Positions 1,990 through 59,085 of a stretch of 64,000 nt of DNA are shown piece after piece. Under the pieces are notes generated by a model that searched no databases, was not told the DNA's origin, and worked only from the letters and a program-made list of their open reading frames with translations. This stretch comes from an uncultured Candidatus Saccharibacteria bacterium (lineage in GTDB: Bacteria; Patescibacteriota; Minisyncoccia; Phycocordibacterales; UBA5272), in assembly GCA_964491805.1 (NCBI GenBank), contig CAZBGU010000001.1:1446-65445 (forward strand). Reading direction: 5' to 3'. The translations under genes and the position numbers were made by a program. Position 1 is the first letter of the stretch. Each line of letters opens with the position of its first letter.

Positions 1990-2271
1990 CTTTTTGGGGT
2001 CTCAATGGTAACTCTTAGATTCCGGCCCCCGTTCCTACGTAGGAACGATGTGGTGCCAGTGGTTGGGCAGACGAGGAGACAAAGGAGGTTTGTTTTCTAC
2101 CTCCAAGTCTGGAACAGGACATGGCTCCTCGAGGTTGTAGACCTTGAGGAGGAGTATGTAAGGGAGGAAGTACCCGGATACGGAGAAATCCGTTACTGGA
2201 AACCCATCAAGGTTTATTGATGCTCGGATCAGGTGCGCCGGCCTTTGGCCGGCGCTCTTCTTTTTGTTTTT
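1990..2271 (+). ncRNA. GC-rich structured intergenic element ending in an intrinsic terminator, candidate ncRNA of unknown class
   Basis: Local GC is well above the flanks. Several perfect hairpins (gttcctac/gtaggaac at ~2029-2044, ggagg...cctcc, cctcgagg...ccttgagg). No convincing ORF. Terminator stem gcgccggcc/gccggcgc plus a T-run at 2235-2271. Confidence 0.25.
2235..2271 (+). terminator. Rho-independent terminator
   Basis: Stem gcgccggcc, loop tttg, stem gccggcgc, then tcttctttttgttttt. Confidence 0.6.
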
Positions 2272-2321
2272 ATCATTGTATACTGGTGTCATATCTGTGT
2301 GTCATGTTGCATAGGGAGTTT

Positions 2322-3323
2322 ATGGAAATCAAAACAGTAGACCTAAAAAATTATTCATCTATTCGTATCGGCGGCGAAGGTCGATTAGTTGTGGTTGTGT
2401 CAGTGTCTGAGCTTACTGAAGTTATGTTATATGCAAGAAGGGAAGGGTTGCGTATTCATATTCTTGGAGATGGAACTAATACCTTTTTTTCAGAAACCCT
2501 TGAAGGAGTCTTGTTTATTAAGATTGCATTCCGTGGAATTTTATTTGAAAAAGAAAATAGTGATGTTATTGTAACTGTGCAAGCAGGTGAAACTTGGGAC
2601 GATATTGTTCGTATCTCCGTTGAGAAAGGATTGTGGGGGATTGAAAACCTCTCACTGATTCCTGGAACTGTTGGAGCAGCTCCAGTGCAAAATATTGGCG
2701 CATATGGAGTTGAGATATCAGATGCTATTATCTCATTGAGTGCGCTTGATTGCGACAGTCTTAATGTTGTAGAGATAAACAAAGATGCATGTAACTTCGA
2801 GTATCGCGACTCACTTTTCAAACAGAATAACGGTAGATATGTTATTCTTTCGTTACGATTACGGTTGTCTACGTTAGCGCGTCCCGTGCTTACATATAAG
2901 CCGCTTGATTCTCTTCTTGGAAGAGGTGCGGTGTTATCGTCTGATGTTAGAGACCTTGTTACTGTAACCAGGAAGTCTAAACTTCCAGACTACATGGAAT
3001 TCCCTAATGTGGGTTCTTTTTTTAAAAATCCGACGGTCGCAACTGACCGAAAAGATATTCTCCAAGAACAGTATCCTGACATTCCCTGTATTGAGGTCAA
3101 GGATGGATATAAGATACCTGCTGCGTGGCTTATAGAGCATGTAGCACAGATGAAAGGAGTAAGGATTGGGGATGTTGGTACGTGGCCTACCCAGCCACTT
3201 GTGCTGGTTAATTATGGTAAAGCAACAGCGCATGATGTTATAGATTTTTCGTATTCAATTATCCATAAAGTGCAAGAAAAGACAGGTATTATATTAGAGC
3301 GTGAAGTTAACTACGTTAGTTGA
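2322..3323 (+). CDS. murB: UDP-N-acetylenolpyruvoylglucosamine reductase MurB
   Basis: FAD-binding N-terminus 'IRIGGEGRLVVVV...ILGDGTNTFF', 'NFEYRDSLFK' and 'FFKNP' motifs, MurB-like length. Start chosen at MEIKTV. Confidence 0.85.
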   Translation: MEIKTVDLKNYSSIRIGGEGRLVVVVSVSELTEVMLYARREGLRIHILGDGTNTFFSETLEGVLFIKIAFRGILFEKENSDVIVTVQAGETWDDIVRISVEKGLWGIENLSLIPGTVGAAPVQNIGAYGVEISDAIISLSALDCDSLNVVEINKDACNFEYRDSLFKQNNGRYVILSLRLRLSTLARPVLTYKPLDSLLGRGAVLSSDVRDLVTVTRKSKLPDYMEFPNVGSFFKNPTVATDRKDILQEQYPDIPCIEVKDGYKIPAAWLIEHVAQMKGVRIGDVGTWPTQPLVLVNYGKATAHDVIDFSYSIIHKVQEKTGIILEREVNYVS

Positions 3324-8841: not shown

Positions 8842-10173
8842 TTGTGTATGAAATTTACCGTTATCGTAGGGATTATGATTATTCAGATAGTATCTGCGCA
8901 TGCATTAGTCATCAGTGAGGTAATGTCGAATCCCGTTGGCGATGATAGTGGAAGAGAATGGATTGAGGTATACAACAATAGTGACGTCGATGTTGATCTT
9001 TCACAGGTATCAATCTCAATTAAAGGAGGTAACTTTGCTGCTGTAAACCCCGTTTCTGGCGGCAATACTCTTACGGCTCATGGGTACGCCATTATAGGTT
9101 CGACGGTTTCTGGCACCACAAGGTTTATGTCAGACTACCCGACATTTTCAAAACCCCTTGCTAAGAGTGCGATTAGTTTGGTCAACACTGGAGTGACTTC
9201 GGTTGAGTTAAAACTCGGTGGAGTAACTGCTGATACAATTGCATCATACACAGCAGCGAAAGAAGGGACGACGTACTCGCTCCTTAACGGTTCATTTTCT
9301 GTTGGATTACCTACACCTGGAGAAGAAAATCAGATTGTTCCAGTCGAACAACCAGAAGCGACAACAACCCCGACAAGCTCACAAACAGGAATAGCGAAGA
9401 TGTCGTCACCGTCCGCGGATATTGTATTTTATCTTCCATCCGAAAAGACGGTTGTAGCAGGGGCTCCCTCAGTATTTTCTGTATCAAGTCTTACTCATGC
9501 AGGGAAAGCAATTGATGGCATGAATTATGTTTGGTCATTTGGTGATGGTGGTGAACGTACGGGAAGTTCTACCATATACCGATATTTTTATCCAGGCAGA
9601 TATATTGCTCAAGTTGAAGGAGCGAATGGTTTTATTGCAGGTATGGGAAGGATGAATGTTCGGGTAGTATCTCCTGATCTTCAGATGTCATCAATTAAAA
9701 TTGGGAAATATGGTTCATATATTGATATTGGTAATCAAAACATATACGATATCGATATATCTGGATGGAAGCTTGTTATTGATAATGTGCCGTACTCTTT
9801 CCCAAAGAATACAATCATCCAGAGCGGAGGGGAGACACATGTTTCAGGACAGGCTATGGGTTTTGCGAGTACAACAGTATCCTCAACGACGATTATAAAG
9901 TTACTCTTTCCGAGCATGGATGAAGTCATGCGTGTATATCAGGTTTCGAATAAGGATGGTGAACTGATACAAAAACCGACCAGCACAATAAGATTGATGC
10001 CTGCTATAGTTTCATCAGATATAGGAACTATAACTAAGAATAAAACCCCATACAAAGTGACAGCTCTAAAGGCTGTGGAAAAAGTTGTCACAACTTCATC
10101 AAGTAATATTGCATCTGTTAAGTCAAAAGATACGAGAATAGCTTCTTGGTTTAAGGGGTTGTTAGTAAAATAG
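8842..10173 (+). CDS. Secreted protein with lamin-tail domain (LTD) and PKD domain
   Basis: Signal/TM N-terminus. LTD signature 'VISEVMSNPVGDDSGREWIEVYNNSD'. PKD-like 'YVWSFGDGGERTGSSTIYRYFYPGRYIAQV'. Confidence 0.6.
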   Translation: MCMKFTVIVGIMIIQIVSAHALVISEVMSNPVGDDSGREWIEVYNNSDVDVDLSQVSISIKGGNFAAVNPVSGGNTLTAHGYAIIGSTVSGTTRFMSDYPTFSKPLAKSAISLVNTGVTSVELKLGGVTADTIASYTAAKEGTTYSLLNGSFSVGLPTPGEENQIVPVEQPEATTTPTSSQTGIAKMSSPSADIVFYLPSEKTVVAGAPSVFSVSSLTHAGKAIDGMNYVWSFGDGGERTGSSTIYRYFYPGRYIAQVEGANGFIAGMGRMNVRVVSPDLQMSSIKIGKYGSYIDIGNQNIYDIDISGWKLVIDNVPYSFPKNTIIQSGGETHVSGQAMGFASTTVSSTTIIKLLFPSMDEVMRVYQVSNKDGELIQKPTSTIRLMPAIVSSDIGTITKNKTPYKVTALKAVEKVVTTSSSNIASVKSKDTRIASWFKGLLVK

Positions 10174-43940: not shown

Positions 43941-45611
43941 ATGAACATTGACACCAACAACATAAAAGAAATTCTAATCACTGGGAATTATATCAGTGAG
44001 GAGGATGCACAAAAAGCAGAAGATATTGCAAAGAAAAATAGTATCTCTTTTATCGAAGCATTGTTGCGCGAAGGTGTTGTAAATAGTGACATAGTTGGAC
44101 AGGCTACAGCTGAAAGTTTCAAAGTTCCATATTCCGATCTTAACTCTGCTGCAATTAGTGCTGATCAGGTGCGTAAGATTCCAGAAGAGGTTGCAAAAAA
44201 GTTGCGAGTAGTTCTCTTTAACGATGAAGATGAAGAGGAAGTTGTCATTACAACCAATAATCCACTTCAAGATGGATTAGTTAAAGAGCTGCAGCCTCTC
44301 TTTAAAGGAAAGAAAATAAAAATTACATATTCTCTGCCAGAGGACATTGATAGTTTTTTTGTTTTCTACGAGAAGCCGCTTGATACCAGATTTTCAAAAA
44401 TCATAGCAGAATCTGATCGTGTTGCTCCAGAAATTCTTGAGGAGATTTTTGATGATGCAATTACATACAAAGCATCTGATGTTCACTTTGAACCGCAAGC
44501 ACGAGTTATTGTGATTCGTTTCCGTGTTGATGGTGTGCTTCACGAAGCAGGCCGTCTTCCAAAAGAAAATTATGAAAATGTTTTGAACCGAATTAAAGTT
44601 AAAAGCGCACTTCGCATTGATGAACATTATTCTGCGCAGGATGGGTCACTCCACTATGATGGTAAAAATGGAATTTCTGTGGATATGCGTACATCAATTA
44701 TTCCAATTGTTGAGGGCGAGAAAGTCGTACTCCGTATTCTTGGTTCGTACGTTCAGGGTCTTACTTTTAATGATCTTGGTCTAACTCCAAAAAATCAAGA
44801 GCTTCTTCGTGAAGCCGCAGATAAGCCATTCGGCATGATTCTTGTTGTTGGACCTACTGGTTCAGGAAAGACTACAACGCTTTACTCTCTTCTTAAGATG
44901 CTTAATACTCCTGATACAAACATTACCACAATTGAAGATCCGGTCGAGTACAAGGTTCAGGGTCTTAATCAGATTCAGGTAACACAAGCAACTGGCCTTA
45001 CATTCGTCCGTGGTCTGCGCGCAATCGTGCGACAAGATCCAGATATTATTCTTGTTGGAGAAATCCGTGACCTTGAAACTGTAGAGATTTCTGTTAATGC
45101 TGCGCTCACTGGTCATCTCCTTCTTTCTACTTTCCATGCCAATGATGCAGCAACAGCAATCCCTCGTCTTCTTGATATGGGGACAGAGCCATTTCTTCTT
45201 TCCTCAACGATGAATCTTATTATTGCCCAGCGACTTGTTCGTAAAATTTGTGATCATTGTAAGGTTAGTGTTGTTAAGAAGCCGTCAGATTTTGATACAC
45301 CACAATTAAAAGGGGTGCGTAAGTATCTTCCTGCGAAGAATCTTACTCTGTATGAGGGTAAGAAATGTGAAGTGTGCGGTTTTACGGGGTATAAAGGTAG
45401 AACTTCGATTTATGAAGTGATTAAAGTTACCCCAACAATGCAAGAACTGATAGTAAAACGTCCGTCAGCTCAAGAAATCTGGAAGCTAGCACGCAAGGAG
45501 GGTGCCAGGTCGGTGTTTGAGGATGGTCTTGAAAAGGTGAAGAATGGTATAACTTCTATTGAAGAGCTAGTCCGTATTGCTCCTCCGCCAGATCGTGCTT
45601 TTGATGAATAA
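43941..45611 (+). CDS. pilB: Type IV pilus / T2SS assembly ATPase PilB/GspE
   Basis: GSPII_E N-terminal domain. Walker A 'VVGPTGSGKTTTLYS'. Tetracysteine-like 'CDHCK...CEVCG'. Confidence 0.85.
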   Translation: MNIDTNNIKEILITGNYISEEDAQKAEDIAKKNSISFIEALLREGVVNSDIVGQATAESFKVPYSDLNSAAISADQVRKIPEEVAKKLRVVLFNDEDEEEVVITTNNPLQDGLVKELQPLFKGKKIKITYSLPEDIDSFFVFYEKPLDTRFSKIIAESDRVAPEILEEIFDDAITYKASDVHFEPQARVIVIRFRVDGVLHEAGRLPKENYENVLNRIKVKSALRIDEHYSAQDGSLHYDGKNGISVDMRTSIIPIVEGEKVVLRILGSYVQGLTFNDLGLTPKNQELLREAADKPFGMILVVGPTGSGKTTTLYSLLKMLNTPDTNITTIEDPVEYKVQGLNQIQVTQATGLTFVRGLRAIVRQDPDIILVGEIRDLETVEISVNAALTGHLLLSTFHANDAATAIPRLLDMGTEPFLLSSTMNLIIAQRLVRKICDHCKVSVVKKPSDFDTPQLKGVRKYLPAKNLTLYEGKKCEVCGFTGYKGRTSIYEVIKVTPTMQELIVKRPSAQEIWKLARKEGARSVFEDGLEKVKNGITSIEELVRIAPPPDRAFDE

Positions 45612-45621
45612 TATCGCATAC

Positions 45622-46947
45622 ATGTCTACGTCAATCATCAAAAAAAAGATATCAGAAAAAACTGAAGCGAACACCAAGAAAGAACAAAAACCACAGAAAG
45701 AAAAGAATGTTACAAAGAGTCAATCAAAAGAGACAGCTTCTTCTTTTGATGTTTCTCTTGTTTCTGGAGAAGTAAAACCTGTTCCTGTTCCAAAAAATGC
45801 AACCAAAGAGGAAAAGGTAACCATCTCTGAGCCTGTGAAGGCAACACCGGCACCTCAGCGTAAGATCGCAGAAGAAAAAAAATTGTCTACATTTGGTCTC
45901 AGTAAGGAGCGCGATCAGTTCATTGAAAATCTGAGCATGCTTGTCATGTCTGGAATGTCAATTATTGGAGCTCTTTCATCTATCATCAAACAAACCAAGT
46001 CGCCAGGAATGAAAAAAATTCTTGAAAGAATGTTACTTGAGATTGAGTCAGGTTCTCCTGTGTGGAAGTCACTTGATAAAACAGGTTTTTTTAAAGGGTA
46101 TACAATTTCCCTTATTCGTCTCGGGGAAGAGTCTGGCAATTTTGCTGAGAACCTCAAAGTCGTTGCGCTTGAAGAAGAAAAGGATCGTGAGTTTAAATCA
46201 AAAGTCCACTCAGCTCTTATGTACCCTGTTTTCGTGCTCGTGCTAACGAATGTTGTCGGTATTGGTATTTCGTGGTTTATTTTGCCTAAATTGGCAAAAA
46301 TTTTCTTTGACCTTAAACTCGCGCTACCTCTTATTACGAGAGTATTGATTGGTTTTGGTCTTTTTCTTAATAAGTATGGGCTTATAGCTGTTCCTGTAGC
46401 GGTTTTCTTCATAGGTATTATCGTCAATATTCTTTTTTTTGGTAAAAAAACCAAATTTCTTGGTGAGTATATAATTTTCTCTATACCAGGTATTAAGACA
46501 TTACTTATGGAGGTTGAGGTGGCTCGTTTTGGATATCTGCTCGGCACCCTTCTTGAGGCTGGGTTACCTGTGACGAAAGCAATTGATTCGCTAGCAGGCG
46601 CATCTGATGTCATCCGATACAAGAAATTTTATTTGTATCTAAAAGACTCGATTGATATGGGGAATTCGTTCCAGAAAAGTTTTGCTGGCTATAAAAATAT
46701 CGACAATCTCATACCGCAGCCAATTCAGCAGTTAATTGTCTCTGGTGAACAGTCTGGCAATCTTAATAAAACACTTATTAAGGTCGGCCAAGTGCTTGAA
46801 GCAAAGTCAGACACGACAACAAAGAATCTCACTATTATTATGGAACCAATTTTGCTTGTTATTGTGTGGGCGGGTGTAGTGTCTGTTGCATTTGCGGTAA
46901 TACTTCCTATTTACAGTCTTGTCGGTAATCTTAACGGTCTTAAATAG
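45622..46947 (+). CDS. pilC: Type IV pilus platform protein PilC/GspF with Lys/Glu-rich N-terminal extension
   Basis: Two T2SSF repeats ('LSMLVMSGMSIIGAL', 'FGYLLGTLLEAGLPV'). 3 TM. Confidence 0.8.
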   Translation: MSTSIIKKKISEKTEANTKKEQKPQKEKNVTKSQSKETASSFDVSLVSGEVKPVPVPKNATKEEKVTISEPVKATPAPQRKIAEEKKLSTFGLSKERDQFIENLSMLVMSGMSIIGALSSIIKQTKSPGMKKILERMLLEIESGSPVWKSLDKTGFFKGYTISLIRLGEESGNFAENLKVVALEEEKDREFKSKVHSALMYPVFVLVLTNVVGIGISWFILPKLAKIFFDLKLALPLITRVLIGFGLFLNKYGLIAVPVAVFFIGIIVNILFFGKKTKFLGEYIIFSIPGIKTLLMEVEVARFGYLLGTLLEAGLPVTKAIDSLAGASDVIRYKKFYLYLKDSIDMGNSFQKSFAGYKNIDNLIPQPIQQLIVSGEQSGNLNKTLIKVGQVLEAKSDTTTKNLTIIMEPILLVIVWAGVVSVAFAVILPIYSLVGNLNGLK

Positions 46948-46952
46948 TCAGT

Positions 46953-47402
46953 ATGAGACATATCAAAGTATCACATAAAGGTTTTACACTTCCTGAGGTT
47001 TTGCTTTCAGTTGCACTGCTAACAATTATTGGTGGGATGAGTATTCCAATGTATCGTGTCTTCATGGTTCGTGATGAATTGGACAGTGCAGCAACAACAC
47101 TAGCGCAGAACCTGAGACGTGCACAGATGCTTTCCCGCTCTTCGTCTGGGGATATGACATGGGGTGTTCATGTAGGGGTAGGGAGTATACTTATCTATAA
47201 AGGATCAAATTACGTTCTTCGAGATTCTTCATTTGATGAGAACACGTCTATCCCGACAACGATTGTTCCAACCGGTACAACAGAGGTCACCTTTTCAAAG
47301 GTAACGGGTTTACCTTCGGCGACAGGAACGTTCACACTTACTTCGCAAGCTAATGAAAAACGAACTATCACAATCAATGAAAAAGGAACGGTTGACTACT
47401 AG
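46953..47402 (+). CDS. Prepilin-type (pseudopilin/minor pilin) protein
   Basis: Class III signal 'MRHIKVSHKG/FTLPEVLL'. Confidence 0.7.
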   Translation: MRHIKVSHKGFTLPEVLLSVALLTIIGGMSIPMYRVFMVRDELDSAATTLAQNLRRAQMLSRSSSGDMTWGVHVGVGSILIYKGSNYVLRDSSFDENTSIPTTIVPTGTTEVTFSKVTGLPSATGTFTLTSQANEKRTITINEKGTVDY

Positions 47403-49671
47403 GAGTGGTTTTTTGTTGGTTGAAGTTATACTCACAAGTGCTTTATTCTTTCTTTTTGTAACTGCATTCGTTGGCGTATTGTATTACGCAATACAGTCGT
47501 CATCATTTGCAGGTGACCGGTCACGCGCTGTGATGCTTGCTGAAGAAGGCCAAGAAGCTGTAAGGAGTATCAAAAATGCTAATTTTTCTAATCTTACAGA
47601 TGGGACGTATGGTCTTACTTTTTCGGGTAATACGTGGAGTTTCTCAGGAACACAAGATATTTCTGGTGCTTTTACTCGTAAGGTTATTATAACTACACCA
47701 TCAACAAATAGAAAAAATGTTGAAGTTGTTGTCTCGTGGCAGCAGACTCCAGATAGAGTTGGAAGCGTTAGTATTCCTGCGCGTTTTTCAAACTGGAGAA
47801 CGATTCTTAATCCAGGAGTTGGGGTTACGGTAACAAGTGTTGTCATTAATCATGGTCAGTCAAAAAATGTTAATGACTTTGCACCGTATAAAGTTGGAAC
47901 GACAACTGTAACATTGGCTTCTTCTACTATCTTTTCTCCCGGCACATATGTAGTCACCGCTGCTACAAGTTCTAACTATACACAAACATTTAGCGGGGAC
48001 TGTAATGTGAGTGGTCAGCTTACAATTACTGCAGGAGCAGCTAAGGTGTGTACTATTACGTACGAAGAAAAACTTGCATATGTAACACTTACTAATACTG
48101 TTATTAATCACGGCAGGACAAAAACAACTGCTGATTTTGCTCCGTATAAAGTTGGATCGACTACGGTTACTTTGGGAGCGACGACGCCTATAAATTCCGG
48201 ATCTTATTCTATTAGTGAAACAACAGATGTTAATTATAACCTAACATTTACAGGTGACTGTTTTACTAATGGTACTATCACACTTAATCCTGGCAGTAAC
48301 ACAACATGTGCGCTAACAAATGAGGAAATAATAACAGGGGGCGGAGGGGGAAGTCAGTCACTTGCTGGAATTATAATTTATGGGGACGGCACTAATATTC
48401 CCAAGTATAGAACCTTCAACCATGTAACAAATGTATTTAGTGCAGAGACTGGGACGTTTGTTGCGACAGTCGGGCCAACTTGGCTTATACGAACATCCCC
48501 AACACAGCACATTGCTCTTGCTGGGTACTATGACTCTACTGCGACACTTACGATTATGTGTTTTGACGGAATAACGTGGACACAAGAATTTCGTGCAGCG
48601 TCAGGTGGTGTTGGTAATCGTCATCGTTTTGATATTGCTTTTGAAAAGACATCCGGCGACGCAATGGTACTTTTTAGTAAAGGGAACAATATTCTTGGGG
48701 CACTTGGGTATAAAACTAAAACAGGCGGGACCGGTTGCGGAGCTGGCTGGGCAGCAGAACAGACCCTTACCCCGCAGAGAACGACAAATGATATTATGTA
48801 CGTAAAACTTGCGCAAGATAGACGTGCTGGCTCAAACCTATTAGCTGCCACATGGGTTGATATTAATGAAGATATTTCAGCTAAGATATGGGCTGGCTCA
48901 GCTTGGGTAAATGAGCCTTCATCTGTTACGGATAATAATCTTGAAAAGGTCACCACTTCTCACGATATTGAGAATATGGATATTGAGTATGAGTCTTTGT
49001 CAGGAGATCTCATGCTTGTTTGGTCAAATGCCCTAGGTAATAATGGTACTAATGGTGCTCGTTATAGAACATGTAATGGTGGTATAGCTATGTGTACATG
49101 GGGGGCAGTGACAACACCGCCATCGTTTCTTGATGATGCAACGAGTCTTGACATTGCTGCAAATCAAAATACTGACGAGATGGTTTTTGCATCGATTGGT
49201 AATGCTGGGGGAGATCTACAGTTAGGGTATTGGAATGGAAATGGATGGACAAATACTGCAAACGTAGACACATCATGTACTGTTCCGTATACTGCATCAA
49301 AGCTTGTTTCTACGGGTTGGCTCACGCTTGGAAGCACAACACGATCTATTGTGGTGTATTCTGACCTTAGTTCTACTGCTATTAATTGGTACACTGGTAA
49401 CGCTGGAGTCTTTACGCGACAAGCTGACTTTGTCCCAACTAGTCCAGTTGCTTCACCTCGCGGGTATATGGATATCCACATGAACCCGCGAGATCAGTCT
49501 CAACTCATGTATCTTACTTCTGATAATAATAGTGATCTATTTGCAAAGCGTCTTATGTTAACAGGGACATCAACGTTTACGTGGACTAATTCTGATGGTG
49601 GTTCGGCACTAGAGACAACGCTTCCACAGATTATTTCTTCCCCATTTTCATTTGCCTTTTGGCAACAGTAG
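47377..49671 (+). CDS. Large (764 aa) pilin-like protein with prepilin leader and two ~80-aa internal tandem repeats, candidate tip adhesin
   Basis: Leader 'MKKERLTTRSG/FLLVEV' (E at +5). Repeats 'VINHGQSKNVNDFAPYKVGTTTVTL...' and 'VINHGRTKTTADFAPYKVGSTTVTL...'. Start overlaps the upstream gene by 26 nt. Confidence 0.55.
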   Translation: MKKERLTTRSGFLLVEVILTSALFFLFVTAFVGVLYYAIQSSSFAGDRSRAVMLAEEGQEAVRSIKNANFSNLTDGTYGLTFSGNTWSFSGTQDISGAFTRKVIITTPSTNRKNVEVVVSWQQTPDRVGSVSIPARFSNWRTILNPGVGVTVTSVVINHGQSKNVNDFAPYKVGTTTVTLASSTIFSPGTYVVTAATSSNYTQTFSGDCNVSGQLTITAGAAKVCTITYEEKLAYVTLTNTVINHGRTKTTADFAPYKVGSTTVTLGATTPINSGSYSISETTDVNYNLTFTGDCFTNGTITLNPGSNTTCALTNEEIITGGGGGSQSLAGIIIYGDGTNIPKYRTFNHVTNVFSAETGTFVATVGPTWLIRTSPTQHIALAGYYDSTATLTIMCFDGITWTQEFRAASGGVGNRHRFDIAFEKTSGDAMVLFSKGNNILGALGYKTKTGGTGCGAGWAAEQTLTPQRTTNDIMYVKLAQDRRAGSNLLAATWVDINEDISAKIWAGSAWVNEPSSVTDNNLEKVTTSHDIENMDIEYESLSGDLMLVWSNALGNNGTNGARYRTCNGGIAMCTWGAVTTPPSFLDDATSLDIAANQNTDEMVFASIGNAGGDLQLGYWNGNGWTNTANVDTSCTVPYTASKLVSTGWLTLGSTTRSIVVYSDLSSTAINWYTGNAGVFTRQADFVPTSPVASPRGYMDIHMNPRDQSQLMYLTSDNNSDLFAKRLMLTGTSTFTWTNSDGGSALETTLPQIISSPFSFAFWQQ

Positions 49672-50189
49672 TACGTATGAATATCCTTAAAACACAAAAA
49701 GGCTTCACCTTGGTGGAAATGGTGCTTTATGTTGCGCTCTGCTCTCTTCTACTTCTTTCTTTATCTGGTTTCACATCGTTTCTTTTAGAGACCAAAACAA
49801 GAAGTCAAGCTATTAACGAAGTTAATCAACAAGGTTCGCAAGTAATGTCACTCATTGTACAGACTATTAGAAACAGTAAAAGTGTAGAATCTCCACAGTT
49901 TGGACAAAGCTCTTCAACGCTTTCTGTAACAACATCAAACCCATTACTTAACCCTACGGTTTTTTTATTAAGCACCACCACTCTTGTTGTTAGTGAGGCC
50001 GGTAAAACTTCAATTGCGCTTACTAATTCTCGAGTAGCAGTTTCTTCTCTATTATTTCAAAATATTTCTTCAACATCTTCATTAGAGAAGAATATCAGAA
50101 TATCATTTACGATTGACGCAGTTAACAAAAGCGGTAGAGGAGAGTATTCGTATACAAAAACGTTTAATGGTAGTGCTATAATTCACTAA
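49659..50189 (+). CDS. Prepilin-type pseudopilin
   Basis: 'KTQKG/FTLVEMVLYVAL'. Confidence 0.65.
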   Translation: MATVVRMNILKTQKGFTLVEMVLYVALCSLLLLSLSGFTSFLLETKTRSQAINEVNQQGSQVMSLIVQTIRNSKSVESPQFGQSSSTLSVTTSNPLLNPTVFLLSTTTLVVSEAGKTSIALTNSRVAVSSLLFQNISSTSSLEKNIRISFTIDAVNKSGRGEYSYTKTFNGSAIIH

Positions 50190-50196
50190 TCAAACT

Positions 50197-50613
50197 TTGA
50201 TGAAAAGTATATCAGTAGAAAAATACAGAACAGTAAGAAAGGGGTATATTGCATTGCTTTCAGTTATATTTATTTCAGCAATTGGTGTCTTGATTATGCT
50301 TTCTGTTATTGCGTCAGGAGTTGATGCGTCTAAAACCGACTATGTATCTCAACAATCAGGACAGTCAAGAGCGATGGCTTCTTCGTGCGCAGAAGAAGCT
50401 TTACAGAAGATACTCGAAACAGGCACGACGTCAAGTGTAGGGACACTTACTATAGCTTCTGGGACCTGTACATATGTAATAAGCTCGGTCGGTGGTTTGC
50501 ACGTTGATTCGACTGGTGTTTTTGGATCTATCACATCAAAGGTAAAAGTAGTAATTTCGACAACATCCCCTTCAATTGTCTTATCCTCATGGTCAGAAGT
50601 TGCAGACTTCTAA
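50197..50613 (+). CDS. Pilin-like protein with non-canonical leader (PilX-like?)
   Basis: 'RKGYIALLSVIFISAIGVLIML' hydrophobic N-terminus. No Glu at +5. Confidence 0.4.
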   Translation: MMKSISVEKYRTVRKGYIALLSVIFISAIGVLIMLSVIASGVDASKTDYVSQQSGQSRAMASSCAEEALQKILETGTTSSVGTLTIASGTCTYVISSVGGLHVDSTGVFGSITSKVKVVISTTSPSIVLSSWSEVADF

Positions 50614-50756: not shown

Positions 50757-51212
50757 ATGAAAAAAATACTACGCAGTCAGAAGGGATTTACACTTATTGA
50801 AATCCTCCTTGTGGTTGCAGCTATCGCTATTCTTGCAGGTATCGTTATCGTGGCTATTAACCCAGCTAAGCAGCTTGGCGACACACGTAATGCTTCAAGA
50901 AATTCAGCTGTAAACACAATTCTTAATGCCATTACACAGTATTCAGTTGACAATAACGGTATCCTTCCGTCTGGAATTACCGCAACTTCGACAGAAATCT
51001 GTTCTTCATCTGTAGCAACATCATCATGTACAGGTCTTGTTGACCTTTCTGTTCTTACAGCTGGTGGTAAGTACATTACTGCTATTCCAGATGAACCACA
51101 GAAGACCAATCCTAACGGAGCTGGTTATACAGTTTCTAAGAATGCAGCTGGTCGTATCACCGTGAGTGCACAGTTCCCAGAAAGTGGTGCTGTTATCTCG
51201 GTAACACGCTAA
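50757..51212 (+). CDS. Type IV major pilin, copy 1
   Basis: 'MKKILRSQKG/FTLIEILLVVAAIAILAGIV'. Conserved Cys pair. Confidence 0.75.
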   Translation: MKKILRSQKGFTLIEILLVVAAIAILAGIVIVAINPAKQLGDTRNASRNSAVNTILNAITQYSVDNNGILPSGITATSTEICSSSVATSSCTGLVDLSVLTAGGKYITAIPDEPQKTNPNGAGYTVSKNAAGRITVSAQFPESGAVISVTR

Positions 51213-51232: not shown

Positions 51233-51688
51233 ATGAAAAAAATACTACGCAGTCAGAAGGGATTTACACTTATTGAAATCCTCCTTGTGGTTGCAGCTAT
51301 CGCTATTCTTGCAGGTATCGTTATCGTGGCTATTAACCCAGCTAAGCAGCTTGGCGACACACGTAATGCTTCAAGAAATTCAGCTGTAAACACAATTCTT
51401 AATGCCATTACACAGTATTCAGTTGACAATAACGGTATCCTTCCGTCTGGAATTACCGCAACTTCGACAGAAATCTGTTCTTCATCTGTAGCAACATCAT
51501 CATGTACAGGTCTTGTTGACCTTTCTGTTCTTACAGCTGGTGGTAAGTATGTCACCGCTATCCCTGATGAACCACAGAAGACCAATCCTAATGGTGCAGG
51601 CTATATGGTTTCAAAGAATTCTAATGGTCGCATCACTGTAAGCGCTCAGTTCCCAGAGAGTGGTGCTTCTATCTCTGTAACTAGATAG
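51233..51688 (+). CDS. Type IV major pilin, copy 2 (tandem duplicate)
   Basis: Nucleotide-identical to copy 1 over the first ~313 nt and diverged thereafter. Confidence 0.75.
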   Translation: MKKILRSQKGFTLIEILLVVAAIAILAGIVIVAINPAKQLGDTRNASRNSAVNTILNAITQYSVDNNGILPSGITATSTEICSSSVATSSCTGLVDLSVLTAGGKYVTAIPDEPQKTNPNGAGYMVSKNSNGRITVSAQFPESGASISVTR

Positions 51689-51695
51689 TCTGTGT

Positions 51696-52499
51696 ATGTT
51701 TACTTGGTTCTCTCGTAAGAAAATGACTGAATCTCGTAGTTCGGAGAAAAAAGATGATGGTTTTATATCTCTTGCTTCTCATGAATTGCGTTCACCACTG
51801 TCTATAATCAAATGGTATACAGAGATTCTTCTTGACGAAGATGCTGGCCCACTCACTAGCGACCAACGTAAGTATCTTATGACCATAGAATCAAGTAATC
51901 AGCGCGCAATTGATCTTGTTCGGTCTTTACTAAACGTATCCAGGTTAGACCTGGGTACGTTTAGTGTTTCACCTGTCAGTCTTAACATTGCAACTATACT
52001 CACGGAAGTTGTTTCATCTTTTAGCAAAGAGATGGAAGTAAAACACCTTGAGGTAATTAATAGTGCCAAGGATGTAAAGAATATTCTTGCAGACAAAAAT
52101 CTTTGTACGACTCTCGTTAAGAATGTTATTGCAAATGCAATCTCATTTTCAAGTAATGGGGGAAAGATTTTCATTGACACATCAGTTGTGTCTGCATATG
52201 AAAAGATCGGAGAGGTGACAGTTAACGAAGAAAGTATTCTTTTTTCTGTTAGAGATACCGGTATCGGTATACCTGAGGCAGATAAAGATAAGGTTTTCAC
52301 GAAGATGTTTAAAGCAGGGAATGTTAAGGATTCTGATAGTACAGGTTCTGGTCTTGGGTTATATATTACAAAAAGTATTCTCGATTATGTTGGTGGTACT
52401 ATTTGTTTCACTTCGACAGAAGGTGAAGGTTCAACTTTTTTTGTGACTTTGCCTACAAGAGGTATGGAAAAGAAAGAAGGAAGGACGACACTGGATTAA
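51696..52499 (+). CDS. Sensorless histidine kinase (HisKA + HATPase_c only)
   Basis: H-box 'ISLASHELRSPLSII'. G-boxes 'DTGIGIP', 'GSGLGLYI'. No TM or sensor domain. Confidence 0.75.
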   Translation: MFTWFSRKKMTESRSSEKKDDGFISLASHELRSPLSIIKWYTEILLDEDAGPLTSDQRKYLMTIESSNQRAIDLVRSLLNVSRLDLGTFSVSPVSLNIATILTEVVSSFSKEMEVKHLEVINSAKDVKNILADKNLCTTLVKNVIANAISFSSNGGKIFIDTSVVSAYEKIGEVTVNEESILFSVRDTGIGIPEADKDKVFTKMFKAGNVKDSDSTGSGLGLYITKSILDYVGGTICFTSTEGEGSTFFVTLPTRGMEKKEGRTTLD

Positions 52500-52610
52500 G
52501 TACAACCGTTAATTAGTAACTCTTAACTGTTTGCTTAACATAATCAAAAGCACAACACTTCTGTGTTGTGCTTTTGTTTTTGGAGTACACTTTCTCGACA
52601 AGGGCTTTCT

Positions 52611-54125
52611 TTACACGCCTCGTAACACTGTAATTTTTGCACCAATACTGTTAAGTCTTTCTGCTATGTCTGCATAGCCCCGCTTTATAGAGTAAACATT
52701 ACGAAGCATTGATGTTCCTTCTGCAGCAAGCATCGCGATAAGAATAATTGCTGTTGGACGAAGCGCTGGTGGCGATACGATTTGTGCACCTCTAAGTCGT
52801 TTGATGCCTGTGATAAGTGCCCTGTGTGGATCAAGAAGTTTAATGTCTGCTCCTAGTCTATTGAGTTCAGTAAAGTAAATTGCACGGTTCTCCCAGGTCC
52901 AGTCGTGAATAAGTGTTTGGCCATGAGCAAAGCAACAGATGGGTACAAAGAAAGGGAGATTGTCATTATTAATTCCTGGAAACGGTTGTGTATGTATCTT
53001 GTCATATGGAGCAACCAGTTCGGATGGAAATAGTGTTATATCTACAAGTACAGTTTTGTTGTTTTTTGAAAGATAGGATTTTGATTGTTTGTAAACAAGA
53101 CCCATGCGCTTCAGTTTTTCGATTTCAAGAGTTAGAAAATCTATTGGACAGCGAGTTACGGTTAGCTTTGATTTTGTAACAATACCAGCCGCAATAAAGA
53201 ACATGCTTTCTATGGGATCTTCGCTATTGTAATGTTCTACGGTGAGGTTGATTGTTTTTTTGCCGTGGACAGTTAACGTCGTTGTGCCTATGCCGTCAAT
53301 TTGTACACCGAATGACTGTAATAGAAAACATACATCTTGCACTTGGTAGTTAGGAGGTGCAAATTTAATAACAGTGGTGCCTTCTATTCTCGATGCCGCA
53401 ATTAGTGCAGTAATGGCCCCAGTGTCAGACGACTCATAGAGAGGTATAACGCCAGGGGACAGCTCTTTGTAGGAGATTTCATAGTGGTTCTCTTTCGTAA
53501 CTACCTGTACACCGAGGTAATCAAGTGCGTACTTATGCGAAGCAACAGTTCGTTCACCCATTTTACAGCCACCGGAGTGAGGAAGTGAAAACGAATCCGT
53601 GAAATGAATAAATGCGCCAGCAAAGGTAAACGATCGAATCTTTTCTGCGGCCTGTTTGTTGATCTTAGAAAAAGTGAGTTTCTTTGGTGGTGTAATTTCG
53701 AGCGCTGTATCATTATGAGTCCAACGTATCTTCACCCCAACACTTTCTAGAAGCTCTTTATAGCGGTATACCTCTTCTATGTGAGGAATGTCTCGAAGTG
53801 TTGTTGTTCCTGAGTTAACAAGTGCCGCCACCATCATGTTAATTGCACCATTCTTAGAGGTATTGGTAGCAATAGTGCCTTTCAGCTTTCTTCCACCTTC
53901 AACTTTGAAGTCTATAGTATCTTGGATGCTAACAATGTTATGCTTAAGAACCTCGCCTATTTTCATTAGTTGTTCTATAGTGACGTTTTGATTGCCTGCT
54001 TCGATGCGTGCAACTGCTGACTGAGATGTCTTAAGCTTCTCAGAAAACTCACCCTGTGTCATCCCTTTTTCTTCCCGTAATTTCTTAATAAAAAGCCCGA
54101 TTTTCTCCTGGTCATTTGGTTCCAT
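52611..54125 (-). CDS. murA: XRE-family HTH domain fused to UDP-N-acetylglucosamine 1-carboxyvinyltransferase MurA
   Basis: N-terminus 'LFIKKLREEKGMTQGEFSEKLKTSQSAVARIEAG' HTH_XRE. MurA 'KVEGGRKLKGTIATNTSKNGA', active-site Cys loop 'GGCKMGERTVASH', C-terminus 'IKRGYADIAERLNSIGAKI'. Confidence 0.75.
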   Translation of the reverse strand: MEPNDQEKIGLFIKKLREEKGMTQGEFSEKLKTSQSAVARIEAGNQNVTIEQLMKIGEVLKHNIVSIQDTIDFKVEGGRKLKGTIATNTSKNGAINMMVAALVNSGTTTLRDIPHIEEVYRYKELLESVGVKIRWTHNDTALEITPPKKLTFSKINKQAAEKIRSFTFAGAFIHFTDSFSLPHSGGCKMGERTVASHKYALDYLGVQVVTKENHYEISYKELSPGVIPLYESSDTGAITALIAASRIEGTTVIKFAPPNYQVQDVCFLLQSFGVQIDGIGTTTLTVHGKKTINLTVEHYNSEDPIESMFFIAAGIVTKSKLTVTRCPIDFLTLEIEKLKRMGLVYKQSKSYLSKNNKTVLVDITLFPSELVAPYDKIHTQPFPGINNDNLPFFVPICCFAHGQTLIHDWTWENRAIYFTELNRLGADIKLLDPHRALITGIKRLRGAQIVSPPALRPTAIILIAMLAAEGTSMLRNVYSIKRGYADIAERLNSIGAKITVLRGV

Positions 54126-54194
54126 ACGTAATCAATATATCATATGTGATATATTGATAGCAATATAAAGGGTGGATAAACCAAAATACTTCTG

Positions 54195-55527: not shown

Positions 55528-55875
55528 TTGTATACTAAAGATATGAAAACAACTCAGTTTCTAGAATATATCCTGTATGATATTTTTGGTGAGCATGAGC
55601 CAATAACTGCGCGAGCGATGATGGGTGCACATGTTCTTTACTATGAAGGTAAGGCTTTTGCTATTGTTGAAAATGAAGAGTTGTACTTCAAAGGCTCGAA
55701 GGAATTAAAAGAGTGGTACCTGTCTCGTGGCAGTAAACAGTTTACGTATACGAAAGAAGGAGAGGACGCACATCTGTATTATTTTCTCGTACCGTCTGAA
55801 ATTTATGAAGACAGAGTAGCGCGAGATGAGTGGTTAGATGTTGCGCTCAGTGTAGCGAAGCTGCCAAAAAGTTGA
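55528..55875 (+). CDS. TfoX N-terminal-domain-like protein
   Basis: 'ARAMMGAHVLYYEGKAFAIVENEELYFKG' resembles the TfoX_N family. Confidence 0.35.
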   Translation: MYTKDMKTTQFLEYILYDIFGEHEPITARAMMGAHVLYYEGKAFAIVENEELYFKGSKELKEWYLSRGSKQFTYTKEGEDAHLYYFLVPSEIYEDRVARDEWLDVALSVAKLPKS

Positions 55876-58173: not shown

Positions 58174-59085
58174 TTATGCGTGAAGGTGGAGATAAATATC
58201 CTCTAGTGCACGCACTGCGTCGCCTGCTGCGATATTGTTCTGGTGATAGAGCACATCGGTACAGTCTCCTGCTGCCCAGATACCTTTCACAGAGGTCTCT
58301 TGAGTGCGAGGATTGATAACAATGTTGTTGGTTGGTGTCATCTCAACAATGCCTGTAGCAAACGACGTCGCAGGAATTTGCCCGATCTCCACGAAGACCG
58401 CTGATACCGGAAGCTTGACTTCCTCACTATCAGAATCTTTTTTGTAAGAAATCGATTCTACGAAAACAGAGCCTTCAACTTTTGTCGGCGCAACATTTTC
58501 AATGAGTGTAAACTTAGGATTGGTTTTAAGCTTTTCTACTGTTATAGCATCAGCTCGTGGTGCGCTACGAGAGAGAAGGGTCACATGAGTGCAGTATGCA
58601 AGAAGCTGTGCAGCAGATTCAAAACCTGCGTTGCCACCACCAACAACAACAACATCCATTCCAGAGAATAATGGTCCATCACACGAAGCGCAGTAGGTGA
58701 GTCCTTTGTGTTCGAGTGTGTCAGCGCCAGGGACATCTAGCCTGCGTCTTTGTGATCCTGTGCCAATAAGTACAGTTTTACTTTTTTCTTCACCTTTAGA
58801 TGTTGTTACAGTGAAGTCACCATCTATTCCCTTGATACTAGTTACTTCTGCTTCGAGTATTGTGAGAATATTGCCTTTGTATTCTTCAACGTGTGTACGA
58901 AGTGATTTCGCAAGATTTGCACCACTGATATGTGGTGTTCCGATCCAGTTCTGAATATCTTCTGATACGGTTGACTGACCTCCCCATTCTTTAACAATAA
59001 GGAGAGTTTTAAGTTGTTTGCGTGCCGCATAGACTGCTGCAGCACACCCTGCAGGTCCTCCGCCGATAATTGTTACGTCGTACAT
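58174..59085 (-). CDS. trxB: Thioredoxin reductase (NADPH) TrxB
   Basis: 'YDVTIIGGGPAGCAAAVYAAR', redox 'CASCDG', NADPH site 'VVVVGGGNAG'. Confidence 0.85.
   Translation of the reverse strand: MYDVTIIGGGPAGCAAAVYAARKQLKTLLIVKEWGGQSTVSEDIQNWIGTPHISGANLAKSLRTHVEEYKGNILTILEAEVTSIKGIDGDFTVTTSKGEEKSKTVLIGTGSQRRRLDVPGADTLEHKGLTYCASCDGPLFSGMDVVVVGGGNAGFESAAQLLAYCTHVTLLSRSAPRADAITVEKLKTNPKFTLIENVAPTKVEGSVFVESISYKKDSDSEEVKLPVSAVFVEIGQIPATSFATGIVEMTPTNNIVINPRTQETSVKGIWAAGDCTDVLYHQNNIAAGDAVRALEDIYLHLHA

Follow-up and report, generated by a model that had tools for sequence, protein, structure and literature searches.

A MurA enzyme fused to an XRE-type helix-turn-helix domain and its predicted role as an autoregulatory trigger enzyme in Patescibacteria

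In a 64,000-nucleotide stretch of DNA from an uncultured Candidatus Saccharibacteria bacterium (contig CAZBGU010000001.1, positions 1,446 to 65,445; the whole stretch is denoted the window), one gene on the minus strand (52611..54125) encodes an XRE-type helix-turn-helix (HTH) domain followed by MurA, the fosfomycin-targeted enzyme that catalyzes the committed step in making peptidoglycan. The comparative analysis reported here suggests, with a probability that we put at roughly 0.7, that this fusion, HTH-MurA, is a bifunctional enzyme-repressor ('trigger enzyme') for peptidoglycan precursor synthesis. Its N-terminal HTH domain would bind, presumably as a dimer, an 18-bp palindrome in the gene's own promoter, and the bound protein would block RNA polymerase at the -10 element, by which MurA would repress its own synthesis (negative autoregulation). 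Repression rather than activation is proposed because the operator overlaps the -10 element. In relatives, a single operator between divergent murB and HTH-murA genes would place the first two committed steps under joint control, and the ligand state of the MurA body (open or closed; with UDP-N-acetylglucosamine (UDP-GlcNAc), the phosphoenolpyruvate (PEP) adduct or UDP-N-acetylmuramate (UDP-MurNAc)) may tune DNA binding and thereby provide end-product feedback.

The original prediction, made from the letters of the window, had offered two readings of the fusion, a moonlighting autoregulator or a tether of the enzyme to DNA or the nucleoid. The former, still a prediction from sequence, has gained strong comparative support from the operator on the gene's own -10 element, from the co-variation of this operator with a residue flanking the recognition helix and from the operator common to murB and the fusion gene in relatives. 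The coupling of precursor flux to transcription that formed part of this reading is a conjecture. Tethering finds no support, as conservation is seen at one site only, a specific operator at the promoter.

Architecture, catalytic residues and recurrence of the fusion

The open reading frame (ORF) runs uninterrupted from its ATG start through 504 codons to the stop, and both domains are recognized in its translation by Pfam and NCBIfam models, as had been read from the letters of the window; all peptides quoted at that time are found in the translation. A protein with 100% identity (P0001) is encoded on a 167-kb contig. The HTH domain comprises residues 13–60 (53946..54089, minus strand), where Pfam HTH_3 reaches 44.5 bits against a gathering cutoff of 23 (E=1.5e-11), in agreement with the approximate extent of residues 10–65 proposed earlier. 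In the AlphaFold2 (AF2) model of the window protein (predicted local distance difference test, pLDDT, 86.6; predicted template modeling score, pTM, 0.80) the N-terminal domain is predicted as a compact all-helical bundle with a recognition helix, consisting of helices 3–19, 24–30, 35–42 and 50–60 with pLDDT values of 82–91 across most of the domain. The closest sequence matches of the HTH domain in the PDB are the controller (C) proteins of restriction-modification (R-M) systems (3clc, 4ia8 and others; E about 1e-4). A linker of residues 61–72 (53910..53945, minus strand) leads over to the enzyme; it is devoid of secondary structure over residues 61–69, and the pLDDT dips to about 62 over residues 61–70.

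The MurA (enolpyruvyl transferase) domain, residues 73–504 (52614..53909, minus strand), was assigned to a divergent MurA subfamily from NCBIfam, PDB and Foldseek matches. Pfam EPSP_synthase (PF00275) aligns to residues 75–491 over its entire length (profile positions 1–417 of 417, E=6e-38), which indicates a full-length two-domain fold and bears out the end-to-end match claimed from the letters, and the NCBIfam MurA subfamily model PRK09369 (residues 73–500) is passed narrowly, with 306.5 bits against a cutoff of 297. Foldseek comparison of the AF2 MurA body with solved MurA structures gives template modeling (TM) scores of about 0.88–0.90, ahead of NikO and AroA. In the PDB sequence comparison the MurA chains align to residues 73–503 only, and no chain joins an HTH domain to MurA. 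No transmembrane segment is present, and the protein is wholly accounted for by the HTH domain, the linker and MurA.

Alignment to E. coli MurA places K22, N23, R91, C115, R120, D305, R371 and R397 (E. coli numbering) in the window protein. The active-site cysteine is Cys187 (E. coli Cys115; codon at 53565..53567, minus strand) within the loop GGCKMGER, and residues 186–188 have low pLDDT values, as expected of a flexible catalytic loop. The cysteine of this loop, singled out already in the original prediction, is retained in 80/80 orthologues, as are K22, N23, R120 and D305, down to 57% sequence identity; R371 and R397 are kept in all 78 orthologues with a residue at these positions (two rows of the alignment are gapped there), and R91 is kept in 11 clade members of the family alignment. 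Some positions of the uridine pocket (D123, K160, S162) differ from E. coli MurA or align ambiguously to it. Since the same residues decay fast in the pseudoenzyme branches described below, catalysis appears to be under selection in the clade of the window protein. The C-terminal 430 residues are therefore best described as a MurA with an intact catalytic set and are predicted to be catalytically competent, which would, at the level of sequence, unite a DNA-binding domain and a working enzyme in one polypeptide.

Fusions of this kind recur widely. A search of 5.8 billion proteins, covering assemblies from NCBI, JGI, ENA and Logan, returned at least 120 protein clusters with 79–100% identity, nearly all of them 504 residues long and containing both domains, and the named clusters derive from metagenome-assembled genomes (MAGs) of Candidatus Paceibacterota, Parcubacteria or Nomurabacteria. 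Scanning species-representative genomes yielded 268 relatives, from which 80 loci in independent MAGs (57–90% identity) were fetched. The encoded proteins cover the N-terminus (from residues 1–8) through the HTH domain and the junction in 80/80 loci and extend to residue 501–504 in 78/80, the remaining two (L054 and L072) ending at a contig end. A frameshift or an assembly join of a small XRE gene to murA, against which a check had been advised at the outset, has virtually no chance of being correct and is refuted by the recurrence of the same continuous ORF in independent assemblies, namely in these clusters, in all 80 loci and in closed or large actinobacterial chromosomes. The earlier statement that MurA normally stands alone thus holds for canonical MurA, whereas the fusion is fixed and widespread in a clade of Patescibacteria (Candidate Phyla Radiation, CPR) and is found in cultivated Actinomycetota as well. 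Two of the loci, L013 and L029, are contigs of one MAG (CAYWEW01, isolate SRP219642_co7_139), each encoding a complete fusion protein with 83% and 79% identity, respectively, to that of the window, and represent either two paralogues or a mixed-strain bin.

The palindromic operator and its co-variation with the HTH domain

An inverted-repeat search upstream of the gene, where operator candidates had been anticipated, revealed a perfect palindrome lying on the -10 element, with 12-nt arms of 100% complementarity around four central nucleotides (12+4+12; 54131–54158). Its 18-bp core, TATATCACATATGATATA in the gene-strand reading (54136..54153, both strands), is the predicted operator as delimited by inverted-repeat search and conservation; it has the consensus form TATATCAyATrTGATATA and is located 10 nt before the fusion ATG. 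The palindrome is unique in the window even when 3 mismatches are allowed, and 0/100 shuffles gave a match. A promoter-like site on the minus strand (54134..54163) was identified by a consensus scan and consists of a -35 element TTGCTA (54163–54158), an 18-nt spacer and a TG-extended -10 element TATATT (54139–54134), which is composed of the final 4 nt of the operator core and 2 further nucleotides. As the fusion ATG begins 8 nt past the -10 element, the fusion mRNA would be leaderless or nearly so. The pattern TGnTAnnnT ending 7–10 nt before the start codon is found for 5/48 window genes, and since this promoter style is only mildly enriched in the window, it is chiefly the promoters of the fusion gene and of murB that argue for leaderless transcripts.

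For comparison between loci the pattern TATAnCAyATrTGnTATA with 12 specified positions, in the following termed the box, was used. It is found at a score of at least 10/12 in 76 of 80 cases (79 scored loci and the window), one of the four misses having no upstream DNA, and the distance from box to ATG is 8–12 nt in 55 of these 76 loci. The information content is about 2 bits per position within the box and about 0–0.3 bits at most flanking positions. At a score of at least 11/12 the 917 kb of loci and window contain 86 matches, of which 74 lie directly upstream of a fusion gene; the 12 matches elsewhere compare with about 7 expected by chance from shuffled sequences. The box is hence essentially confined to the fusion promoter.

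The two half-sites of the box have to be considered separately, as the right half coincides with the TG-extended -10 element. In the window clade no gene diverges from the left half-site, which is nevertheless conserved there. A trxB-like gene near many of the loci served as control; its promoter mostly carries the right half only (TGATATAaT, an extended -10 element) and lacks the left half, from which it follows that the left half marks more than a promoter. A box at a score of at least 11/12 precedes the trxB-like gene in 2–5 of 36 loci, and a full box only in L027 and L028, where it is positioned 11 nt upstream of the thioredoxin-reductase-like gene (L027:251-268, 11/12; L028:2264-2281, a perfect 12/12 match, TATATCACGTGTGATATA). 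These two sites could be a sporadic extension of the regulon or chance matches. The homologous gene of the window is located at 58174-59085.

No second box with a score of at least 11/12 is present in the 64-kb window, and the sites scoring 10/12 at positions 9935, 41865, 41958 and 55567 are at chance level and were rejected as evidence of a wider regulon in the window. The last of these (55567-55584) has counterparts in L002 (343) and L012 (4414), box-like sequences matching 10–12 of 12 positions about 40 nt inside a gene with a TfoX_N domain; they are probably not operators and arise from the coding sequence for YI(M/L)YDI. In L058 a second perfect box (9942-9959, TATATCATATGTGATATA) is located about 4 kb downstream of the fusion gene and abuts the 5' end of a 184-residue minus-strand ORF of unknown function.

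The most specific link between protein and DNA is provided by the recognition-helix segment S34-Q-S-A-V-A-R-I-E42 (54000..54026, minus strand), delimited by motif conservation and by its co-variation with the box. Residue 34 directly precedes the recognition helix predicted by AF2 (residues 35–42) and adjoins the Gln-Ser pair that contacts bases in HTH proteins of the lambda cI type. Positions 5 and 14 of the box, which are symmetric partners, are T.A in 53 loci, G.C in 13 and C.G in one. All of the symmetric G.C boxes (13/13) are accompanied by Thr34, and all of the symmetric T.A boxes (51/51) by Ser34 (46) or Ala34 (5); 73 of 74 tips are concordant. On a neighbor-joining tree computed from only the MurA domain, Thr34 and G.C occur in the same five separate groups, among which that of L061 and L062 is clearly separate from the others; by Fitch parsimony Thr34 requires at least 6 changes and G.C at least 5, with at least 5 coincident switches. 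Residue 34 is thus the predicted specificity determinant of the HTH domain. A complementary case is L052, where, alone among the loci with upstream DNA, the left half-site is lost; here the helix is heavily diverged (DIDKTQVIAIEEG), with all MurA catalytic residues intact.

These observations bear on a reading in which the HTH domain is vestigial or a protein-interaction module and the palindrome is promoter sequence or the site of another factor. XRE-like HTH domains can indeed be protein-binding modules (compare PMC9804626), as in RodZ, likewise a cell-wall-related protein, whose N-terminal XRE-like HTH domain binds MreB; moreover, the right half of the box is an extended -10 element that would be conserved anyway and occurs at other promoters. 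However, neither the conserved left half-site nor the symmetric changes at positions 5 and 14 in step with residue 34 are accounted for in this way. Across phyla the box is found along with the helix motif, and L052 has lost both, whereas the closest unfused relative, P0121, has no box. Contrary to what a RodZ-like role would suggest, the RodZ-type model HTH_25 matches the N-terminus only below its cutoff (E=0.024, 14.9 bits against 24.6), the protein has no membrane segment, and a specific, co-varying DNA palindrome accompanies it. We consider it very unlikely that the HTH domain is not a DNA-binding module for this palindrome.

The palindrome might alternatively act as an RNA hairpin in a 5' leader, affecting stability or translation, with compensatory changes preserving the stem. 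If transcribed, the 28-nt palindrome would fold with -10.9 kcal/mol, compared to -0.7 ± 1.1 for shuffled sequences, and the T.A, G.C and C.G states of the pair 5/14 are compensatory. A near-invariance of about 2 bits per position across phyla is, on the other hand, typical of a protein-binding site rather than of a stem, and an RNA stem leaves the co-variation with a protein residue unexplained. Furthermore, the -35 and TG-extended -10 elements put the start of transcription downstream of the palindrome, and at the divergent murB loci the promoters must lie within the box because only about 8 nt separate it from each ATG. The hairpin is accordingly a scarcely credible explanation.

murB, Actinomycetota and pseudoenzyme relatives

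In 25 orthologous loci, all with 57–70% identity to the window protein, murB is divergent from and directly adjacent to HTH-murA, and the only box is situated in the intergenic region, which is about 35–40 nt long in most of them. The murB ATG is followed, mostly after 8 nt, by the 18-bp box and then by the HTH-murA ATG, 8–11 nt past the box in about half of the loci. As each half-site read outward is a TG-extended -10 element, one bound dimer would cover both promoters. L078 retains the canonical distance of 10 nt between box and murB, but the leader of HTH-murA there is 342 nt long. The suggestion that palindromes might also be found upstream of murB is therefore borne out in these relatives and fails at the murB homologue of the window itself (2217-3323, plus strand; 37% identical to E. 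coli MurB over 305 residues, E=2e-53).

Fused proteins persist down to 29–38% identity among representatives at 50% identity, and the helix motif T-S-Q-S-A-x-x-R-x-E-x-G-x-Q-N is invariant in eight aligned relatives (29–48% identity). In a tree of the wider family all fused proteins and a few unfused ones form one subfamily. Its closest unfused member, P0121, is 62% identical to the window protein and has intact catalytic residues; a tRNA lies directly upstream, and neither an HTH gene nor a box is found nearby. A split version of the fusion at this locus was rejected, as the upstream 74-residue gene is a hydrophobic ORF and not an HTH gene.

A branch with 48% identity and intact catalytic residues (P0122) is actinobacterial and includes Nonomuraea, Streptomyces, Actinacidiphila, Marinactinospora and others; RefSeq labels these fusions 'helix-turn-helix domain-containing protein' or MurA. 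In three of the genera, at about 70% GC and with unrelated neighboring genes, the palindrome (T)ATCTCA-N4-TGAGAT(A) is located 11–13 nt before the ATG. The neighbors of HTH-murA in S. iranensis and Marinactinospora are wholly different from those in Nonomuraea, and because of these differences between genera the actinobacterial gene with its operator looks like a mobile or accessory single-gene cassette. In the Nonomuraea locus (L087, 11595-12605) a phage-integrase gene lies directly downstream of HTH-murA and is followed by a small HTH gene.

The deepest relatives have retained the HTH domain on a MurA fold that appears catalytically dead: seven of the eight aligned proteins (P0127, P0130, P0135, P0137, P0139, P0200 and P0202) are without the Cys115 loop and other catalytic residues. 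A box is present upstream at the loci of P0127, P0135, P0200 and P0137, and none was found upstream at the P0139 locus, where the gene follows one read as alanine racemase (alr). The genes of P0127 and P0135 diverge from an operon of canonical, unfused murA and murB, and the 60–84-nt intergenic region contains the box; a Mur ligase gene follows in both loci, preceded by ddl in that of P0127. The canonical MurAs beside these pseudoenzymes fall outside the fused subfamily and are 24–25% identical to the MurA domain of the window protein. In the P0137 lineage (L089, 8685-11554) the pseudoenzyme fusion is the last gene of an operon with a NUDIX hydrolase and a 242-residue NTP-transferase, possibly a sugar-1-phosphate nucleotidylyltransferase; boxes precede both upstream genes, by 33 nt in the case of the NUDIX hydrolase and by 10 nt in that of the NTP-transferase.

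Several points weigh against the proposal of a trigger enzyme. The MurA domain is only 24–26% identical to canonical MurAs and fails the NCBIfam murA equivalog model TIGR01072, with 290 bits against a cutoff of 392.7, for which reason it is regarded as a divergent MurA; the equivalog model PRK12830 is failed as well (210.6 against 552). In view of the low identity and the missed cutoff the substrate could differ. MurA is normally monomeric, and two fusion proteins would have to occupy the palindrome. The promoter was assigned by consensus matching only, and the number of independent S34T events is approximate because the neighbor-joining tree is without support values. In the window, some 50 kb separate murB from HTH-murA and no box precedes murB, which would make the circuit there purely autoregulatory. 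Finally, no canonical MurA was found in the 64-kb window or within ±6 kb at the 80 loci, which are a small part of each genome.

The main alternative is a dedicated regulator, in which the MurA-like body is merely the ligand sensor of an XRE repressor and a separate canonical MurA performs catalysis. It draws on the pseudoenzymes beside canonical murA-murB operons, on the divergence of the entire fused group from canonical MurA (24–26% identity), on the missed TIGR01072 cutoff and on the accessory, patchy distribution in Actinomycetota, which presumably hold the fusion besides a MurA of their own. Against a mere sensor stand the catalytic residues, invariant in orthologues down to 57% identity and decaying fast in the pseudoenzyme branches, the existence of unfused subfamily members with intact residues such as P0121, and the 25 loci that pair the fused gene directly with murB and have no canonical murA in the vicinity. 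In L052, moreover, it is the HTH domain that decays and the enzyme residues that persist. A sensor without catalytic function is thus considered unlikely for the window protein, and the trigger enzyme is retained as the preferred explanation.

An extended form of the trigger-enzyme proposal, which we regard as possible but on balance doubtful, assigns the MurA fold the role of a built-in metabolite sensor. The enzyme would close when UDP-MurNAc or UDP-GlcNAc binds or the PEP-Cys adduct forms, which would gate the HTH domain allosterically, and one protein would both catalyze and feedback-control the first committed step together with murB. Solved MurA structures with tightly bound UDP-MurNAc and the PEP-Cys adduct exist (3swd, 3su9 and 8d84, found as Foldseek matches), which makes this state a plausible signal for ligand control. 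Extant proteins would then form a series from a stand-alone enzyme (P0121) via an autoregulated trigger enzyme (the window clade and Actinomycetota) to a dead sensor-regulator of a canonical murA-murB-ddl-murX cluster (the P0127 and P0135 lineages). In Actinomycetota exposed to fosfomycin, the cassette could serve as an inducible spare MurA.

Relation to known systems and surroundings of the gene

In combining a DNA-binding domain and a pathway enzyme in one polypeptide, HTH-MurA resembles the trigger enzymes BirA (biotin ligase-repressor), PutA, NadR and archaeal RbkR. The operators of these proteins are located at promoters of the same pathway, and the predicted targets of HTH-MurA and its relatives likewise belong to the enzyme's own pathway: its own promoter (76/80), murB (25 loci) and, in the pseudoenzyme lineages, canonical murA-murB with ddl and a Mur ligase. 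There is, however, no homology to these systems; here the enzyme is MurA, with a DNA-binding domain of the XRE/Cro type instead of a winged helix or ribbon-helix-helix. The main target of HTH-MurA is its own gene, in which it departs from the known trigger enzymes, and ligand control, a hallmark of BirA and PutA, is proposed here by inference. RbkR was likewise inferred by comparative genomics (PMC5397151), and the occurrence of BirA with and without a DNA-binding domain at the N-terminus (group II and group I, respectively) parallels the fused and unfused members of the MurA subfamily (PMC4016012).

With regard to the HTH domain, the nearest counterparts by PDB sequence comparison are the R-M controller C proteins (C.Esp1396I) and small XRE autoregulators of the 434 and lambda Cro/cI type. 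These are dimeric, bind palindromes overlapping their own promoters and autoregulate. C proteins are stand-alone proteins of about 80 residues in R-M operons, whereas here the HTH domain is joined to a 430-residue enzyme and there is no R-M context. Compared to canonical MurA (E. coli, E. cloacae; MurAA and MurAB of Gram-positives), HTH-MurA has the same fold and the same catalytic residues including the cysteine targeted by fosfomycin, but differs in its low identity, its N-terminal HTH domain and its membership in a separate subfamily that includes pseudoenzyme regulators. The homology of HTH-MurA is limited to MurA and XRE HTH domains.

Degenerate enzyme folds are the basis of regulators such as NagC and Mlc of the ROK family and B. 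subtilis PurR with its phosphoribosyltransferase (PRT)-like domain. The deep relatives resemble this type, with an HTH domain on a dead MurA fold beside the genes presumably controlled, whereas the window protein with its full catalytic set marks the end of the series that is still an enzyme. To our knowledge, the known controls of MurA act in trans and not via the enzyme, namely ClpCP proteolysis with ReoM in Firmicutes, kinase pathways and global regulators. CodY and other MurA controls are covered in a 2026 review of peptidoglycan regulation (PMC13204101), which is silent on a MurA-HTH fusion. In the open full-text literature, as distinct from subscription-only papers, no functional description of such a fusion or of self-autoregulation by MurA was found. 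The protein as such is already visible in public annotation; the novelty lies in its functional interpretation.

If correct, HTH-MurA would be a minimal self-contained homeostat for the supply of cell-wall precursors and would add to the few concrete regulatory circuits that can be read in CPR/Patescibacteria, organisms with tiny genomes and few regulators that are mostly uncultivated. The same module and operator type in cultivable Streptomyces, Nonomuraea and Marinactinospora would make the proposal directly testable, with the rule linking residue 34 and base pair 5 providing a specificity-swap prediction, and the pseudoenzyme relatives would offer a clean case of evolution from enzyme to regulator.

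The window has a GC content of 39% and contains genes for a type IV pilus/type II secretion system (T2SS), ftsA-ftsZ and murB, in keeping with a genome of CPR/Patescibacteria. Between the 3' end of HTH-murA and a convergent histidine-kinase gene (51696-52499; HisKA and HATPase_c, with no obvious sensor domain) lies a bidirectional terminator-like hairpin with a 14-bp stem (52545..52576), scored on both strands with a T run after the stem on the plus strand only. The type IV pilus/T2SS-like cluster (43941-50613, plus strand) consists of a T2SSE ATPase (43941-45611), a T2SSF platform protein (45577-46947), a 772-residue protein with no Pfam match (47353-49671) and pseudopilin-like ORFs (49659-50613). 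It is followed on the plus strand by two near-identical genes in tandem (50757-51212 and 51233-51688) for proteins of 151 residues with type IV pilin-like N-termini (KGFTLIEILLVVAAIAILAGIV...), which differ only at a few residues near the C-terminus and suggest a recent tandem duplication.

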